Numbered from the stretch's first letter, positions 23,764 through 30,055 are shown. The stretch is 63,193 nucleotides of DNA from Chloroflexota bacterium (GCA_030744875.1 JASLPR010000030.1:1-63193), one strand, 5' to 3'. A program made the numbers and translations. Notes: a model not told the origin generated them from the sequence alone.

Positions 23764-25665
23764 CTAGGCCTCCGGTATCCACACCCGCATCTTGCCCGCC
23801 CCGCGGTTGGCCCAGACGAAGTACGGGATTGCCTTCAGCGGCGTGCTGCCGGTGGCGCCCAGCGCGGCGAACGGCTGCTCCTGATAGAGGTTCGTCGGCT
23901 TGCCGTTCAGTTCCACGCCCTCGGCCTCCAGCACGGTCACCCCGCCCAGCAGGTCCGCCTCGTGGTGACTGGCGATCGTCGCGTCCGGCGGCAGGCCCAG
24001 GTCGTAGACATCAACGTCGGCGTGATCGGCCTCCTCGACGCAATACACGATCGGCCCCCGCGCCAGCGCCACGTGGCCGCGGTTGTTCAGCACCCGCGGG
24101 TGGCTGCGCACGCGCCGCGCCCGCATCGGCAGTTCCAGCGAAACCGCGTCGCCGGCGGCCCACTCCCGGGTGATCCGCGCATACGAACCCGGCACGACCT
24201 CCACTCCCGCCGGCTCGCCGTTCACCAGCAACTCGGCGGTGTCCGCCCAGGCCGGTATCCGCAGCGCCAGCGTTGTCGGGCCGCCCGGCGCCTCGGCCAG
24301 CTTCAAGCGAATCGCGCCGTCCCACGGGTATTCGGTATCCACGCTCATCGCCAATCTGCCGCGCTCCCCGAGGTCGGCCGCCACGCTGCCGCTCACGTAC
24401 AGGTGCACCCACAGCCCGTCGTCGTCGGTCGAATAGGCATAGCCCGGCAGGCTCATCAGCAGCCGCGCCACGTTCGGCGGGCAGCACGAGCACTCAAACC
24501 AGCTATCGCGCGCGTAGCCGCCCGGTGACGCCAGCGGGTTCATATAGAAATAGCCCTGCCCGTCCAACGAGATGCCCGAAATCACGCTGTTGAACAGCGC
24601 CGTCTCCATGGCGTCGGCGTATTTGGCGTCGCCGTAGCGAGCCAGCATCCGCCAGTTCCAGAACACCGCCCCGATGGCCGCGCAGGTCTCGGCGTAGGCC
24701 CGTTCATTGGGCAGTTCGTAGTTGTCGCCGAAGGCCTCGCCCTCATAGCGCGCGCCGAGCGCCCCGGTCACATAGGCCTTGCGCGAATAGGTGTTGTCCC
24801 ACAGCCGGTGCAGCGCGGCCTCCATTGCGGCGTCCTCGCCCTCCAGGATCACGTCGGTCATCCCGGTGGTCATATACATCGCCCGCACCGCGTGCCCCAC
24901 CACCTCCGACTGCTCGCGCACCGGCAGGTGATCCTGGTAGTACTCGCGCTCGCGGCGGCGCGGCCGGTCCGGGATCACCGACGGGTTCTTGCCGCGCTGG
25001 TCCAGGAAGTCGATCGCCAGATCTAGGTACTTCCGCTCGTCGGTCTCGCGGTACAACTCGGCCAGCGCCATTTCAATTTCCTCGTGCCCGTCGGTCGCGT
25101 CGCGCTTGCCCGGGCCGAAGGTGGCCACCAAGTGCTCTGCCACCCGGATCGCCACGTCAAAGAAGGTGTCCCGGCCGGTGCCGCGGCGATGGGCGATCGC
25201 CGCCTGGATCATGTGCCCGTAGCAGTAGAACTCGTGCTCCTGGGTCAGGTTGGTGTAGCGCGCGCTCGCCCGGTTGAACATGAAGGCCGTGTTCAGGTAG
25301 CCGTCGGGCTGCTGGGCGGCGGCGATCTCATCGATCACCGCCTCGATCAGCTCTTCCAGCTCCGGGCTCACGCCTTCCATCAGCGCGTAGCCGGCCGCCT
25401 CCAGCGCCTTGTAGACATCCGAGTCGTTAAACACCAACCCCTGGTGATCGGCGATCTCGCGGCGGCCCGAGGCGCGCCGGAAGTTGTCGATCCGGCCGGT
25501 CTTCTCACACTGCACCAGCTGCTCCCGAATCGTCTCTTCGCGAATCGTCGCCCGGCGCGGCGCCCAGACGCCGTCCGCGAACTCCACCGCCGTCAGCGGC
25601 ACCGGCCGCAGCCGCGCGTGCGGGCTTCGCCCCAGATCCATCAAGACCCCGCTCGTTTTGCTCAT
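23764..25665 (-). CDS. GH127 beta-L-arabinofuranosidase family (DUF1680)
   Basis: DSDVYK.LE, HE.YC.GH, GHEEIE.AL, GHAVRAMY, AYAETCA, W..CSCCPPN. Start MSKTSG at 25665. Confidence 0.9.
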   Translation of the reverse strand: MSKTSGVLMDLGRSPHARLRPVPLTAVEFADGVWAPRRATIREETIREQLVQCEKTGRIDNFRRASGRREIADHQGLVFNDSDVYKALEAAGYALMEGVSPELEELIEAVIDEIAAAQQPDGYLNTAFMFNRASARYTNLTQEHEFYCYGHMIQAAIAHRRGTGRDTFFDVAIRVAEHLVATFGPGKRDATDGHEEIEMALAELYRETDERKYLDLAIDFLDQRGKNPSVIPDRPRRREREYYQDHLPVREQSEVVGHAVRAMYMTTGMTDVILEGEDAAMEAALHRLWDNTYSRKAYVTGALGARYEGEAFGDNYELPNERAYAETCAAIGAVFWNWRMLARYGDAKYADAMETALFNSVISGISLDGQGYFYMNPLASPGGYARDSWFECSCCPPNVARLLMSLPGYAYSTDDDGLWVHLYVSGSVAADLGERGRLAMSVDTEYPWDGAIRLKLAEAPGGPTTLALRIPAWADTAELLVNGEPAGVEVVPGSYARITREWAAGDAVSLELPMRARRVRSHPRVLNNRGHVALARGPIVYCVEEADHADVDVYDLGLPPDATIASHHEADLLGGVTVLEAEGVELNGKPTNLYQEQPFAALGATGSTPLKAIPYFVWANRGAGKMRVWIPEA

Positions 25666-25756
25666 CTCGTTCCGCCTCCGGTTGCCGACGCTGCAAGCTC
25701 TGGTGGGCAACAGTATTATCGATGTCCGCTCGCATTCAAATCCGGGGAGTGCACTG

Positions 25757-26930
25757 ATGGAAATCACCGACATCAAGGCCACCATGCTCGAGATCCCGTA
25801 ACCGGAGGAATTCCGCGCGGCCTGGCGCCCCGACGTAGTCGAGACCTCCCGCCCCGCCACCATCGTGCTGATCACCACCGACGACGGCATCGTCGGCGTG
25901 GGCGGCTCAGGCCGGAGGGATGCCGCGCTGATCCGCGACTTCATTGCCTGGCAACTCATCGGCCAGAACCCCTTCGCCCTCGAGCGCCACGCCGATCTCC
26001 TGCGCCAGGCCGGCGGCGGCTGGATTGTCGACATGGCCCTCTGCGACAGTGTCGCCAAGGCTGCCGGGCTGCCCCTCGCCACCCTCTGGGGCCTCTACCA
26101 GAACCGCATCCGCGCCTACGCCAGCCTGGTCACCCGCCCGCCCCGTCGAAGAAGTCGCCGAGCGTGCCCTCGAACTCAAGTCCCAGGGCTTCCTAGCCGT
26201 CAAGATCCGCGCCCATTACGAGACCCTCGCCGACGATGTCCGCATGGTCGAACTCGTCCGTGAGGCCGTCGGCGACTCCATGGAGATCATGGTCGACGCC
26301 AATCAGGCGGGTCCCGTCTCGGCCTCCAATCCGGTCGCCGGCGCCGGCGTCACTTGGGACCTAGGGCGCGCCACCGCCACCGCCCGCGAATACGAGCAAC
26401 TGGGGGTGCTGTGGCTCGAGGAGCCGCTGCCCCGCTACCAGTTCGAGAACCTGTCGCGGCTCCGCGACGCCGTCGGGGTTCCCATCGCCGGCGGCGAGGG
26501 CAACACCGGCCTGCACGAGTTCCACTGGATGCTGCGCGACGGGGCCTACGACATCGTGCAGCCCGACGCCACCACTTCAGAGGGTCTCTCCCAATTGCGC
26601 AAGGTGGCGGCCACCGCCGAGTTGATGGGTCGGCAGTTCATCCCCCACCACGGCGCTGGCGGGATCGGCCTGGCGGCCCACCTGCACCTCTGCGCGACGC
26701 TGCGCAACTCCCCCTGGATCGAGTTCATCATCGACCCGCCCTGTCGCACCCTGCGTTCCTACCAGCACCTGGGCGGGGTGCTGGCGGAGCCGCTGAATAT
26801 CGACGAAGAGGGCTACCTGGACGTGCCGACCGGCAGCGGACTCGGGGTGGTGATTGATGAGATTGCGCTGCAGCGCTTCGCCACCGACACGGCGCGCAGC
26901 ACCACCTCGCGGACCCGCTCCACTGACTAG
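25757..26930 (+). pseudogene. mandelate racemase/muconate lactonizing (enolase superfamily) enzyme with an in-frame TAA and a frameshift
   Basis: MEITDIKA...IP*PEEF...ITTDDG.VG.G, DMAL.D..AK..G.PL; frameshift near 26135; then KIR, MVDAN, WLEEP, GGEG, QPD, PHH. Confidence 0.85.
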
Positions 26931-27023
26931 GGCGGACCCGGTGGCGGGGTTGCGCTACCCGACTAGGCCATCTACCAGTCCCTGCCGGGCCCGGCCAGCG
27001 AGCGGCGCTCGCCGGCCGTTGCA

Positions 27024-27056
27024 GAAAGAAGAGCGGGGGCCCGAAGGCCCCCACTC
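27024..27056 (-). terminator. intrinsic terminator with cUUCGg tetraloop
   Basis: Minus strand GAGTGGGGGCC-TTCG-GGCCCCCGCTC-TTCTTTC: 11-bp stem followed by a U-rich tail. Confidence 0.85.
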
Positions 27057-27570
27057 GAAAGCTCTGTATTTCGCTCGATCACCGCCGGAACTGCCCGGTC
27101 AGTATCAAAACTCTGATTTGTTTTTCCGCTCCGGTGGTTTCAAGGCCGGATTGCGGACTGTTGTGCCTTCCGGCTGGGTGGCATCTTCCAGTGTGCAACC
27201 GTGCGAATGGCTTGTGATGGGACCGGGCGTCACTAGGTGCGTCCTCACCCAACCTCCGTTTGCCGGCTTCCCCGTTTCGGGCGTTTCCGCTCGAACTCCG
27301 GGCTTCGCAGCTTCCGCCATTGACGCTGGGGTTTGGTGTAGCTGTTCCAGTGGCCGGATCGGTTTACCCGCCCCGGACTCCGGCTCGGCCTTCCCGCTCC
27401 GTACGCCGGGTCGGTTTACCCGCCCTGGCTTCGGTTTGGACTAACCGCCCCGTCCAACGACCCTCTCAGTCCGATGACCCGAGGGGACCCCTAATTAATC
27501 ACCAGCCAGCGATGGTTTCGAATGTAGATTCTTACCACCATTCGCTCCTCGCTCTGTCCGCCTCGCCACG
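27024..27570 (-). ncRNA. candidate large structured non-coding RNA (~545 nt), family not recognised
   Basis: Bounded by a sigma70 promoter and an intrinsic terminator. No credible ORF. Many hairpins and GNRA loops, plus a duplicated internal hairpin. Confidence 0.6.
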
Positions 27571-27575
27571 TCTTG

Positions 27576-27603
27576 AATCTACTCTAAAGCGCGGTTTCGT
27601 CAA
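27576..27603 (-). promoter_or_regulatory. sigma70-type promoter TTGACG-N16-TAGATT
   Basis: Minus strand TTGACG aaaccgcgctttagag TAGATT; each box is close to consensus. Confidence 0.65.
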
Positions 27604-27675
27604 GGAATTCTGGCCGCGTGAACCGCCTCTCGGTACCCCTCCATGGCGCCCCCGGAATCGCCTCTCCCGGCCGGG

Positions 27676-28149
27676 TCAAGCTGCCCCTTCGGCGTCCTCC
27701 CGCAGCCGCGTTTCCAGCCGGCGTAACGCCTCCCGGTTGTCCTCCCAGGTCAGCCGTGCCAGCGCCGCGTCCGGCGTCACCCAGGCCCAATCGTCGTGCT
27801 CCTTGCCGATCGTCACGGCGTCCCCGGCCACCTCGACCGCGTACGAATGCTTCACCGCGGCCAACTCCCGGTCGCCGCCGTATCTGGTGAACTCAAACGG
27901 AAACGCGAACTCCAGGTCGAGAATTGCCACCGGGTCGCCGATCCCGGTCTCCTCGCGGACCTCGCGCCGCACCGCCGCCTCCAGCTCTTCGCCGTCTTCG
28001 ACGCTGCCGGTCACCGCCTGCCACCAGCCGCCGCGTTGCGGGGTGCGCCGCAGCAGCAGCACTCGCACGGGGTCGGTCCTTCGAAACACGATCGCCTCCA
28101 CCACCCGGTGGCGCGCTCCGCCGGTGTCGCTTGAATCGCCCGCGGTCAT
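27676..28149 (-). CDS. NUDIX hydrolase (NudB-like)
   Basis: VLLLRR....GWWQAVTGSVEDGE..EAAVRREVREETG Nudix box; EH..WAW. Confidence 0.85.
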   Translation of the reverse strand: MTAGDSSDTGGARHRVVEAIVFRRTDPVRVLLLRRTPQRGGWWQAVTGSVEDGEELEAAVRREVREETGIGDPVAILDLEFAFPFEFTRYGGDRELAAVKHSYAVEVAGDAVTIGKEHDDWAWVTPDAALARLTWEDNREALRRLETRLREDAEGAA

Positions 28150-28304
28150 CGCCGGCGCCGTCCCTTCCGGTCGAATTGCCGATACCATATGGGTCCGCAT
28201 CCGACCGCGCTGGCCGGCGCCCGTCGGACGCCCATCATGACATCCGGCGACTAGCGGCGGCGGCGGCCACCCGGGCGTCCGGTAATGAGGGAGGGTTTTG
28301 GTCC

Positions 28305-28508
28305 GTGCAACCCATCAATGATTTCATCGTCGTCCCCAGCATCCCCGCGTCGTTGCGGCCGCTCAAGGAGATCAGCTACAACCTCTGGTGGAGCTGGAAC
28401 CCGGATGCCGTCGGCCTCTTTCGGCGCATCGACGCCGGACTCTGGGAACAGGCCAACCACAACCCGATCCGCCTGCTCGGCATGGTGTGCTGGGCTCCCC
28501 CGCAATGA
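28305..28508 (+). pseudogene. glgP: 5' remnant of alpha-glucan (glycogen) phosphorylase
   Basis: F.VVPSIP..L..L.EISYNLWWSWN...LFRRID..LWE...HNPI.LL is the phosphorylase N-terminus, with RBS GAGGGAGG. Truncated after ~65 codons. Confidence 0.8.
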
Positions 28509-28538
28509 TGAATTCGGCCAGCCGATCGCCGCGCACCC

Positions 28539-28994
28539 GTGGCTGATCAGGGGCTCGCCGGCCCGCCCTTGGTGTGGCGCGTCCTGCTGGCGCTGGCGGT
28601 CGATCCGGATGCCGGCTATGCCTCGCCGTTCGTCGGGGCCACGGTTCCGCGCCGCTTCCACTACGGGTGGCGATTCGTTTGCCGGCGCGAGCACCGCCGT
28701 CTCCGGCGGCGCCTGCAGACTTGGTACACCGAAGATCTCGACGCCGCGCCCGGGTCGCACAAGCCGCTGGCGCGGCGCGTCGCCGCCTACCCAGCCGCCT
28801 TCGTCGCCGAAGACCGGGCTTACTGCGCGGGCCTGTCGCCGATCCAGCGGGCCATCCACGGCCTGCTGTTGGTGAGCATGCCGCTGGCCCGCGTTCACCT
28901 CGACGATCTCCGCCACCGCTACCGCTTTTTCGGGGTCGGCGACGAGGTCTGGGTCGACGGTCAAAACCTGGGCCGCGGGCAGGGTCTGGGCTAG
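28539..28994 (+). CDS. hypothetical protein (151 aa)
   Basis: Fills the gap between the glgP remnant and the transketolase promoter. No recognised motif. Confidence 0.4.
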   Translation: MADQGLAGPPLVWRVLLALAVDPDAGYASPFVGATVPRRFHYGWRFVCRREHRRLRRRLQTWYTEDLDAAPGSHKPLARRVAAYPAAFVAEDRAYCAGLSPIQRAIHGLLLVSMPLARVHLDDLRHRYRFFGVGDEVWVDGQNLGRGQGLG

Positions 28995-29206
28995 GCGAAA
29001 GCCCGCTTCGCGCGCCCGGCTGCGCCGGGCTCCGGAGTGCTAGCATTACGCGCGAGCGGCGCCAGTCACTCACCGGCCTCCGGGGCCGGTTTCGACTTCC
29101 TAATCGGCCGCTCCAGCGATGAGTAAGCGAATCCTGTTGACAGTCAGGAGGACAGGACCGTGTCTACGCGTATTTGGAGAATGCCGCCCCGGCGGCGGGG
29201 GCTGGC

Positions 29207-30055
29207 ATGAGCTCCGCGAACGGCGGCGTCGATGCCGCCCTCGTCACTCGTCTCGAAGGTATCGCCGCCAACGCTCGCCAGGACATCCTGCGGGCCATCG
29301 CCAACGCCGGCGCCGGCCACACCGGCGGCAGCCTCTCGGTCACCGACATCCTCACCGCGCTCTACTTCCGGGTATTGCGCAACGACCCGGAGCGCCCCGA
29401 CTGGCCCGAGCGCGACCGCCTGGTCCTGTCCAAGGGCCACGCCTCGGCCGGCTTCTACGCGGTGCTGGCGGCGCGCGGGTACTTCTCCCGCGAAGAGTTT
29501 GTGGAGAACTACGACACCGTCGACAGCATCTTCATGGGCCATCCCGATCGCCTGAAGACCCCCGGCGTCGAGACCTCCACCGGCAGCCTCGGCCACGGCC
29601 TCTCCGTCGCCATCGGCATGGCGCTGGGGCTCAAGGCGAAGGGCCCCGCCGCCCATGTCTACGCCGTGCTCGGTGACGGCGAACTCGACGAGGGCCAGGT
29701 CTGGGAGGCCCTCATGTACGCCGGCACCCATAAGGTCAGCGGGCTCACCGCGATCGTCGATTTCAACAAGCTGCAACTGGTCGGCCGGGTCGACGAGACG
29801 ATGTCCCTGGAGCCGTTGGTGCCCAAGCTGCAGAGCTTCGGCTGGAAGGTCGTCGAGTGCGATGGCCACGACATCGCCGAGTTGATCGCCGTGCTGGAGA
29901 GCGCCCGCGAAGACGCCGACGGCCCGGTGATCGTCCTGGCCCATACCGTCAAAGGCAAAGGCGTCTCGTTCATCGAAGACCAGGTGGCCTGGCACGCCCG
30001 CGTACCTACACCCGAGGAACTGCAACAGGGCCTCGCCGAGCTGGAGGTGAAATGA
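29207..30055 (+). CDS. transketolase, N-terminal (TPP-binding) subunit
   Basis: GH.GGSLS..DI, RDRLVLSKGH, GHP, TGSLGHGLS, GDGELDEG..WEA, DGHD, TVKGKG. TTGACA upstream at 29138. Confidence 0.93.
   Translation: MSSANGGVDAALVTRLEGIAANARQDILRAIANAGAGHTGGSLSVTDILTALYFRVLRNDPERPDWPERDRLVLSKGHASAGFYAVLAARGYFSREEFVENYDTVDSIFMGHPDRLKTPGVETSTGSLGHGLSVAIGMALGLKAKGPAAHVYAVLGDGELDEGQVWEALMYAGTHKVSGLTAIVDFNKLQLVGRVDETMSLEPLVPKLQSFGWKVVECDGHDIAELIAVLESAREDADGPVIVLAHTVKGKGVSFIEDQVAWHARVPTPEELQQGLAELEVK

Follow-up and report, generated by a model that had tools for sequence, protein, structure and literature searches.

Staphylococcus aureus RNAIII is an RNA of 514 nucleotides (nt). Its 5' region encodes a peptide of 26 amino acids (aa), the translation of which is delayed by an interaction with the 3' end of the RNA, and the other dual-function RNAs treated in the part of PMC12612679 used here include Pel RNA, at 469 nt, and Spot 42, whose peptide SpfP has 15 aa (PMC12612679). 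We describe here an RNA gene on the minus strand of a 63,193-nt stretch of DNA from a Chloroflexota bacterium (GCA_030744875.1 JASLPR010000030.1:1-63193), which at its full length we call the window. An earlier note, made from the sequence of the window alone, had proposed that the gene encodes a large stand-alone non-coding RNA (ncRNA) of an undescribed class. We find that the RNA is real, separately transcribed and abundant, with a length of ~0.5 kb, and that it is a new family of stand-alone structured RNA, of a general kind (orphan large RNA or dual-function RNA) that is already known. Judging from the substitutions among its relatives, the 5' end of this RNA probably doubles as the coding sequence of a conserved peptide of 16 residues.

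By analogy, the closest functional counterpart of this RNA would be RNAIII. The Chloroflexota RNA is like RNAIII and Pel in its size of ~0.5 kb, its own promoter and terminator, its abundance, and its multiple helices and long-range pairings. As in those RNAs, so far as the same part of PMC12612679 describes them, a very short open reading frame (ORF) lies at the 5' end, its initiation region appears to pair with distal RNA, and the remainder, which makes up most of the molecule, is conserved non-coding sequence. It differs from them in showing no sequence or structure homology, in having no Rfam match and in coming from another phylum; the predicted peptide has 16 residues rather than 26, and no C-rich seed loops are evident. 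Spot 42/SpfP, SgrS/SgrT, SR1/SR1P and rnTrpL/peTrpL are similar in that the ORF overlaps structural or pairing segments, and the candidate peptide is near SpfP in size. Those RNAs, however, measure 100-250 nt, so that the Chloroflexota RNA is two to five times longer; they have defined seeds, and several of them need Hfq, a gene for which was not found in the 89%-complete genome that contains the window.

The orphan large bacterial RNAs OLE, ROOL, GOLLD and raiA are characterized, in the portion of PMC12286853 that concerns them, as large and independent, and lineage-restricted motifs such as Chloroflexi-1 and Dictyoglomi-1 appear in the corresponding portion of Weinberg 2010 (PMC2864571). The RNA described here resembles the four orphan RNAs in being large, intergenic, independent and highly expressed, with a narrow or patchy distribution. 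It differs in having no match in Rfam 15, in its far weaker structural support (one genus, six variants) and in containing a probable coding segment. The analogy to Ms1, OLE, ROOL and raiA that the earlier note drew holds for size and independence but not for family membership, as none of these families matches. Few large bacterial RNAs lack a family match, and those that have been studied well have all brought unexpected biology to light. The source of this one is an uncultured open-ocean lineage in which RNA-based regulation is essentially uncharted, and in the RNA itself a probable micro-ORF is joined to a larger structured domain that is conserved.

Transcript, family search and distribution

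Public sequencing runs that contain all or part of the stretch numbered 20, including 8 RNA libraries. We compared three of the RNA runs, as contigs assembled from marine metatranscriptomes, and one DNA run with positions 25000-30000. In this interval, RNA run X10 yielded a single contig of 511 nt (27064-27569, depth 24.6), and X11 likewise yielded a single contig, of 501 nt (27071-27569, depth 21.8). Run X12, from the same sample as X10, gave two contigs, both within the X10 span. No RNA contig from any of the three runs fell on the flanking genes, whereas the DNA run X14, from the same sample as X11, covered 28 of the 30 bins of the interval at ~3x. The RNA was thus assembled from small metatranscriptomes although the DNA of the organism was present at only ~3x. 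The two long contigs share an end at 27569, a G, and because this nucleotide lies 7 nt after the -10 hexamer it is the expected transcription start. Their opposite ends leave the terminator stem and the 8-15 nt before it uncovered, which is what poor coverage of a 3'-terminal hairpin would produce. The stand-alone transcription unit put forward in the earlier note is borne out by this discrete, abundant transcript of ~0.5 kb, seen in the contigs of both X10 and X11, and by a promoter and terminator that are kept in every species of the genus.

The promoter, TTGACG-N16-TAGATT at 27603-27576, is present as the earlier note had claimed, and it is the sole promoter-like site in 26000-28500 (1 observed versus 0.2 +/- 0.5 in shuffles). 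Both hexamers are kept in 5/5 genomes of the genus while the spacer between them is variable, and a conserved GAATTYC-like stretch lies directly 5' of the -35 box. The intrinsic terminator, with its 11-bp stem, UUCG loop and U-tract, is likewise found where it had been placed. Taken alone, a terminator-like site is within chance expectation (1 seen versus 1.7 +/- 1.1 in shuffles); this one is conserved in all variants, with 2 compensatory pairs (helix 17 of the consensus fold). The G+C content of the interval is 58-65%, versus ~70% around it, and its minus strand is purine-rich. Outside the unit bounded by promoter and terminator, the sequences of the genus genomes do not align.

Covariance models of Rfam 15 gave no match at the gathering score in the whole window. 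At E <= 10, the segment 26800-27800 had only one match, to a microRNA model on the other strand and at chance level (E = 8.2). None of RNase P, transfer-messenger RNA (tmRNA), 6S, signal recognition particle (SRP) RNA, Ms1, OLE, ROOL, GOLLD, raiA, HEARO, T-box and IMES reached its gathering score. Three housekeeping RNAs are encoded elsewhere in the genome, namely RNase P RNA (contig C85, 177.1 bits), a canonical 6S RNA (contig C34, 62.2 bits) and SRP RNA (contig C89, 76.3 bits). Neither the Rfam model nor ARAGORN found tmRNA in this 89%-complete assembly; it is present in 4/4 sister genomes that also carry the RNA, and an assembly gap is the most likely reason for its absence here. Since the housekeeping RNAs are encoded elsewhere or, for tmRNA, in the sister genomes, the RNA at 27569-27024 is not a divergent copy of any of them. 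The separate genes and the null result with Rfam also confirm the earlier statement that features of RNase P, tmRNA, 6S and SRP RNA are lacking, and with no family match the novelty of the RNA stands. Keyword searches of the literature, covering open-access text exclusive of supplements, returned no description of such an RNA in Chloroflexota. Defence-system models gave only a weak generic NUDIX match.

By sequence comparison, the RNA is confined to one genus of uncultured marine Chloroflexota. BLAST detected the region in 4/4 other species of the genus, and in 0/14 further genomes of the family and 0/22 genomes of a second family. A covariance model built on the 3' domain (R1) found the RNA in 5/19 family genomes, the same five as BLAST, with the gene in single copy, and nothing genuine outside the genus among 57 genomes of the order or 98 of the class. 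Matches of R1 in two genomes of another family (G030, G049) comprised the terminator and a generic hairpin with most of the model deleted, and were rejected. A scan of genome contigs with a 17-base pattern returned at least 119 stretches, 3 of them genuine by nhmmer and identical to those of the sister genomes G002, G003 and G004. The corresponding metagenome scan returned 5 loci, all within the genus, with one new variant (L133, identical to L137). A degenerate pattern for the small ORF matched 0/400 other sampled genomes of the phylum, a sample to which the sister genomes did not belong. After removal of duplicates there were six distinct variants, plus two near-copies of G003, in two clades: clade A contains G000 (the genome of this window), G002 and G003, and clade B contains G004, G001 and L133. 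The DNA runs that contain the locus are seawater metagenomes.

Consensus structure and the small ORF

RNAalifold predicted 98 pairs from the six sequences, with standard pairs in 96.9% of cells. The covariation that the earlier note had suggested looking for is present: 13 of the 98 pairs in the six variants carry compensatory changes, versus 6.6 +/- 1.8 when the 3' letters were shuffled (0/500 shuffles reached 13), and sliding the partners by 1-3 columns left 0-2 pairs changed on both sides, versus the 13 observed. The consensus energy of the whole RNA, -107.9 kcal/mol, was lower than in any of 100 column-shuffled alignments (-75.8 +/- 5.9, z = -5.4). The same held without the terminator (-81.3 versus -63.2 +/- 6.3 kcal/mol, 0/100 as low, z = -2.9). 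A strict-stacking de novo search for helices was too noisy.

The best-supported internal hairpin (27489-27459, helix 3) has 11 pairs with 100% of cells paired, 2 compensatory and 4 one-sided changes, and is found in all four consensus folds. The 5' hairpin, which encloses the start codon of the small ORF, has 9 pairs, again with 100% of cells paired, and shows 3 one-sided and 0 compensatory changes; its 5' arm, with the AUG, has a conserved alternative partner ~330 nt downstream, predicted in two consensus folds. A long-range helix (27508-27503/27176-27171) forms a predicted 6-bp stack with 1 compensatory and 2 one-sided changes, in which G-C becomes A-U in 3/6 sequences, and it is mutually exclusive with the local GCC-GGAA-GGC hairpin. 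This helix and a second long-range one, at ~27455-27452/27223-27220, count together with the internal hairpin and the terminator as the best-supported elements. Of the stems singled out in the earlier note, the CCCTC/GAGGG hairpin and the terminator are backed by the relatives, with 2 compensatory pairs each, but the local TTGGAC/GTCCAA stem is lost in G002, G003 and the second clade. The ATCAGA/TTTGAT stem and most of GCC-GGAA-GGC are invariant across the variants and are therefore uninformative either way.

The most strongly conserved part of the molecule is the nearly invariant 3' core, which includes an A/U-rich segment unusual for a genome of 70% G+C. Insertions or deletions (indels) of 1 nt in G003 and G004 disrupt all reading frames of the core, and it is therefore conserved as RNA and not as protein.

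The small ORF of 16 codons near the 5' end is the only ORF with an aligned start in 6/6 variants. Its stop is at the same place in 5/6, and the first 13 residues of the peptide are similar in all six. Between G000 and G002 the ORF has 5 synonymous and 0 non-synonymous changes, and 4/5 of the changed bases are at codon position 3. Between G003 and G001 there are 10 synonymous and 3 non-synonymous changes, with 11/15 changed bases at position 3. Summed over these two independent pairs, synonymous changes outnumber non-synonymous ones by 15 to 3, and 15/20 changed bases are at position 3, whereas in the same two pairs the other two frames give 0-1 synonymous versus 3-12 non-synonymous changes. 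A binomial estimate for 15/20 at one codon position gives p of the order of 1e-4 (not corrected for frames and windows). As far as substitution patterns can indicate coding, the small ORF thus changes in the manner of a coding sequence in four of the six variants. Because a 16-codon ORF with third-position periodicity is conserved, a dual function of the RNA is at least as likely as a purely non-coding one.

These comparisons divide the earlier statement that the interval contains no credible ORF. It holds for the 71-aa ORF at 27105-27320, for which G002 lacks a start codon, G003 has a stop after 11 codons and clade B has unrelated sequence and lengths; a check of this ORF for codon periodicity found no conservation, which leaves the RNA interpretation standing. 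It does not hold for the 16-codon ORF at 27541-27491, which the earlier note had left unmentioned and which is conserved with a coding-type pattern. The large RNA of undescribed class keeps its novelty, given the absence of an Rfam match and the signs of structure; the term non-coding is not fully upheld, owing to the small ORF. Two further candidates were rejected: a 12-codon UUG ORF in the 3' core is disrupted by the 1-nt indels in G003 and G004, and another, at alignment column 255, lacks a start codon in G002 and varies in length from 11 to 86 aa. At the end of the small ORF, the clade A sequences have a stretch of 11 nt (27491-27501) with stops in all three frames (UGA, UAA, UAG); the matching stretch in clade B has one stop or none.

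A proposed dual function and its alternatives

Our preference, which is tentative and which we would put slightly below an even chance, is that this is a dual-function RNA of a new family, in which a 5' micro-ORF precedes a structured domain and the invariant 3' core of that domain acts as the effector. The 16-codon ORF would occupy the 5' end, with its start codon within a hairpin, and be followed by ~400 nt of structured RNA, the 3' core and the terminator. Since the initiation region and the Trp-Leu codons lie within predicted helices, translation and folding of the RNA would be mutually exclusive. A ribosome translating the small ORF would disrupt both the 5' hairpin and the long-range helix rooted in the Trp-Leu codons, and translation could then switch the overall fold, akin to the way in which the 3' end of RNAIII gates its 5' ORF. 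The active portion of the molecule may be the invariant 3' core, which would act in trans, with a protein or short RNA targets as its binding partners.

We also considered a more far-reaching and distinctly unlikely version, namely that the RNA represents an unknown class of large riboregulator of oligotrophic-ocean Chloroflexota. Here a 0.45-0.55-kb RNA would be refolded by ribosomes on an ORF embedded in two helices, and its translation status, and hence the nutrient or energy state of the cell, would be read out by a 3' domain that binds a putative partner; alternatively, the RNA might form a new RNA-protein or RNA-only particle.

Several observations weigh against a dual function with a translation-dependent switch. 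Folded as a single sequence, the RNA has a minimum free energy of -223.5 kcal/mol (z = -1.57), and 7/100 shuffles fold equally well. All of the stems listed in the earlier note can be read in the sequence; the single-sequence fold is not clearly above chance. The six variants represent one genus and two clades, such that each covariation amounts to about one evolutionary event, and the structure that was tested had been derived from the same alignment. The comparative data support a structured RNA, but the four consensus folds disagree on the other long-range pairings, which makes any global fold, and with it the proposed switch, tentative. Between G004 and L133 the small ORF shows 1 synonymous and 6 non-synonymous changes, with position 3 accounting for 3/9 changed bases, and G004 no longer has the stop. 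Column-wise periodicity over the six variants is weak (p ~0.05, uncorrected), and the residues conserved in the peptide are encoded by sequence that also forms the arms of two helices, so their conservation could be partly structural. A search of the genome for antisense matches to the 3' core found none longer than 13 nt, which is chance level only, and the A/U-rich segment of the core has no complement of 11 nt or more in the genome. Finally, the transcript is represented not by reads but by contigs, which give no strand, exact ends or expression level, and both samples are from one study.

The alternative that survives best, unlikely in our estimate yet deserving serious attention, is a structured RNA with no coding role at all, its small ORF being an untranslated by-product of helix arms. 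Such an RNA might be a scaffold, a protein-binding or self-assembling RNA in the manner of OLE, ROOL, GOLLD or raiA, or a polymerase binder of the 6S/Ms1 type. The discrete, abundant transcript and the comparative signs of structure suit it, as do the placement of the strongest conservation in the non-coding 3' core, the decay of the small ORF in the G004/L133 lineage while the RNA is kept, the short spacing between the Shine-Dalgarno-like sequence and the AUG, and the burial of that AUG in a hairpin. Structure alone, however, does not explain the excess of synonymous (15 versus 3) and third-position (15/20) changes in two independent comparisons, and several of the changes in the small ORF fall in the loop of the hairpin. 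Abundance, stability and independent transcription are shared with 6S and Ms1, but the canonical 6S RNA is already encoded elsewhere in the genome, neither of the two matches (nor does any other named family), and the predicted folds contain no long, interrupted duplex around a central bubble.

An ordinary small-protein mRNA would turn the argument around, making the peptide the sole relevant product and the 400-nt tail a stabilizing structured 3' untranslated region (UTR). We consider this improbable, even though the small ORF shows coding-type substitutions and the unit has a promoter and a terminator of its own. Conservation is higher in the 3' core than in the ORF, and the core accepts indels that break the frame yet hardly any substitutions. 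The tail is also kept where the peptide diverges and, in G004, where the stop is lost. A 3' UTR of 8 times the length of the ORF, with compensatory changes, is not needed by a simple mRNA.

The small ORF, the alternative pairings and the intrinsic terminator resemble an attenuator, which raises the question of a cis-acting leader (attenuator-like or riboswitch-like) that controls read-through into the GH127 glycoside hydrolase gene. In clade B this gene indeed lies on the same strand ~60 nt past the terminator. In clade A, by contrast, the downstream order is RNA, a convergent enolase-superfamily gene and then GH127, so that 3/6 variants have no downstream gene of the same operon. The divergent enolase-superfamily/GH127 pair is also present in a sister genus, where neither the NUDIX gene (the gene directly upstream of the RNA) nor the RNA adjoins it; the pair is therefore ancestral, the adjacency in clade B is due to a deletion, and the RNA did not originate as a GH127 leader. 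Beside this pair the sister genera show neither a NUDIX gene nor a long gap that could contain an analogous RNA. Like the trpL, hisL and ilvL attenuators, the RNA has a short ORF, predicted mutually exclusive pairings that involve ORF codons, and a terminal intrinsic terminator. Unlike them, it has its terminator at least 430 nt after the ORF, lacks a run of any one amino acid or regulatory codon, and has no competing helix, as no consensus fold pairs the terminator arms elsewhere. The RNA contigs, moreover, end before the terminator, and none lies on GH127. We regard a leader function as highly improbable.

A sponge of the CsrB/RsmZ type that sequesters CsrA is hardly credible. The genome has a CsrA gene, and the RNA is abundant and similar in size to such sponges, but GGA occurs 18 times versus 14.9 +/- 3.2 in shuffles (210/1000 shuffles reach 18), only 3 GGA sites are common to the six variants, and there is no array of repeated GGA-loop hairpins. 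Least plausible of all is a functionless transcribed relic of a decayed gene or mobile element, given that the locus is single-copy and not a genome repeat, that no protein family matches any ORF in the region, that no mobile-element genes were found nearby, that the RNA is highly abundant, and that promoter, terminator and core are kept in six variants while the flanking non-coding DNA is unalignable.

If the dual function that we favour is true, this build would extend to Chloroflexota, the examples named in the part of PMC12612679 used here being from Firmicutes and Proteobacteria, and the RNA would offer a concrete example of RNA refolding coupled to translation. As a purely non-coding molecule it would instead be a candidate for a new class of large RNA. 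The narrow distribution, one genus and six variants, limits the generality of either conclusion and the strength of the structural evidence.

Neighbouring genes and the central duplication

Table 1. Features of the RNA gene and its immediate neighbours (positions in the window).
Feature	Position	Strand	Details
RNA gene, whole unit	27603-27024	minus	promoter, transcript and terminator
Sigma-70-type promoter	27576..27603	minus	-35 TTGACG 27603-27598, 16-nt spacer, -10 TAGATT 27581-27576
Transcript	27024..27569	minus	5' end G27569; 3' end assumed at the U-tract after the terminator; 546 nt here
Candidate Shine-Dalgarno-like GAGGAG	27545..27550	minus	3-5 nt before AUG; GGGG or GGGGG in other variants; read from the sequence
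Small ORF, 16 codons	27491..27541	minus	AUG 27541-27539, UAG 27493-27491; predicted peptide MVVRIYIRNHRWLVIN
5' hairpin	27508..27546	minus	arms 27546-27537 and 27516-27508; encloses start codon and codons 9-11 of small ORF
Predicted long-range helix	27503..27508 with 27176-27171	minus	UGGCUG (Trp-Leu codons) with CAGCCG; consensus fold helix 2
Best-supported internal hairpin	27459..27489	minus	11-bp stem including CCCTC/GAGGG
Variable central region	27330..27435	minus	~100 nt longer in G000 only; local tandem duplication
3' core, nearly invariant	27099..27167	minus	hairpin ~27146-27126 and A/U-rich segment
Intrinsic terminator	27024..27056	minus	11-bp stem and UUCG loop 27056-27031, then U-rich tail
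NUDIX hydrolase gene	27676..28200	minus	directly upstream of RNA; PF00293, E 2.3e-21
Enolase-superfamily (MR_MLE) gene	25944-26930	plus	convergent with RNA

Further out, the RNA is surrounded by catabolic genes of an ordinary sort (GH4, GH127, transketolase and short-chain dehydrogenases). All copies with upstream sequence have the NUDIX gene ahead of the RNA (locus L135 ends before that gene). It was found in 5/19 family genomes at E <= 1e-15 and in 8/98 class genomes at E <= 1e-20, 3 of the latter being only 39-40% identical. The gene is therefore as genus-restricted as the RNA, and the two may have been acquired jointly. The closest named family of the NUDIX protein is dihydroneopterin triphosphate diphosphatase, with a score below the family cut-off. 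Upstream of the NUDIX gene, ORFs overlap on both strands (28251-28964 minus, 28539-28994 plus), with no match in Pfam, NCBIfam or PADLOC; in G002 (L054) the homologous frame of the region 28251-28994 is split, with ~2.3 kb between the two matching parts.

On the other side of the RNA, the MR_MLE gene matches its family profiles only from about position 140, and residues 68-312 alone are conserved in the relatives, including the sister genus. It is therefore apparently a conserved short form without the usual N-terminal domain, or its start has been called too early. The gene is missing between the RNA and GH127 at L004, L005, L133 and L137, which belong to the second clade. The GH127 ORF (23764-26082, minus strand, 772 codons) is conserved with its orthologues only from about codon 133, and its true start is probably near 25686; the part upstream of that position shares its DNA with the oppositely oriented MR_MLE gene. 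Just past the RNA terminator lies a second inverted repeat rich in G+C, at 26979-27031 on the plus strand. This repeat is the source of the chance microRNA match and could serve the convergent MR_MLE gene as its terminator.

The transcript of G000 is the longest of the variants, the other five having lengths of ~445-465 nt. The additional sequence in its central region is a local 52-nt tandem duplication of a small hairpin, with 21-nt cores at 27425-27405 and 27373-27353 that are 52 nt apart. The duplication is absent from the other variants, and G003 has a shorter version of the region. It is not a genome-wide repeat, as nothing else in the genome matches it beyond chance words of 14-18 nt. 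The RNA contigs include the duplication, and the longer form is therefore the expressed one.

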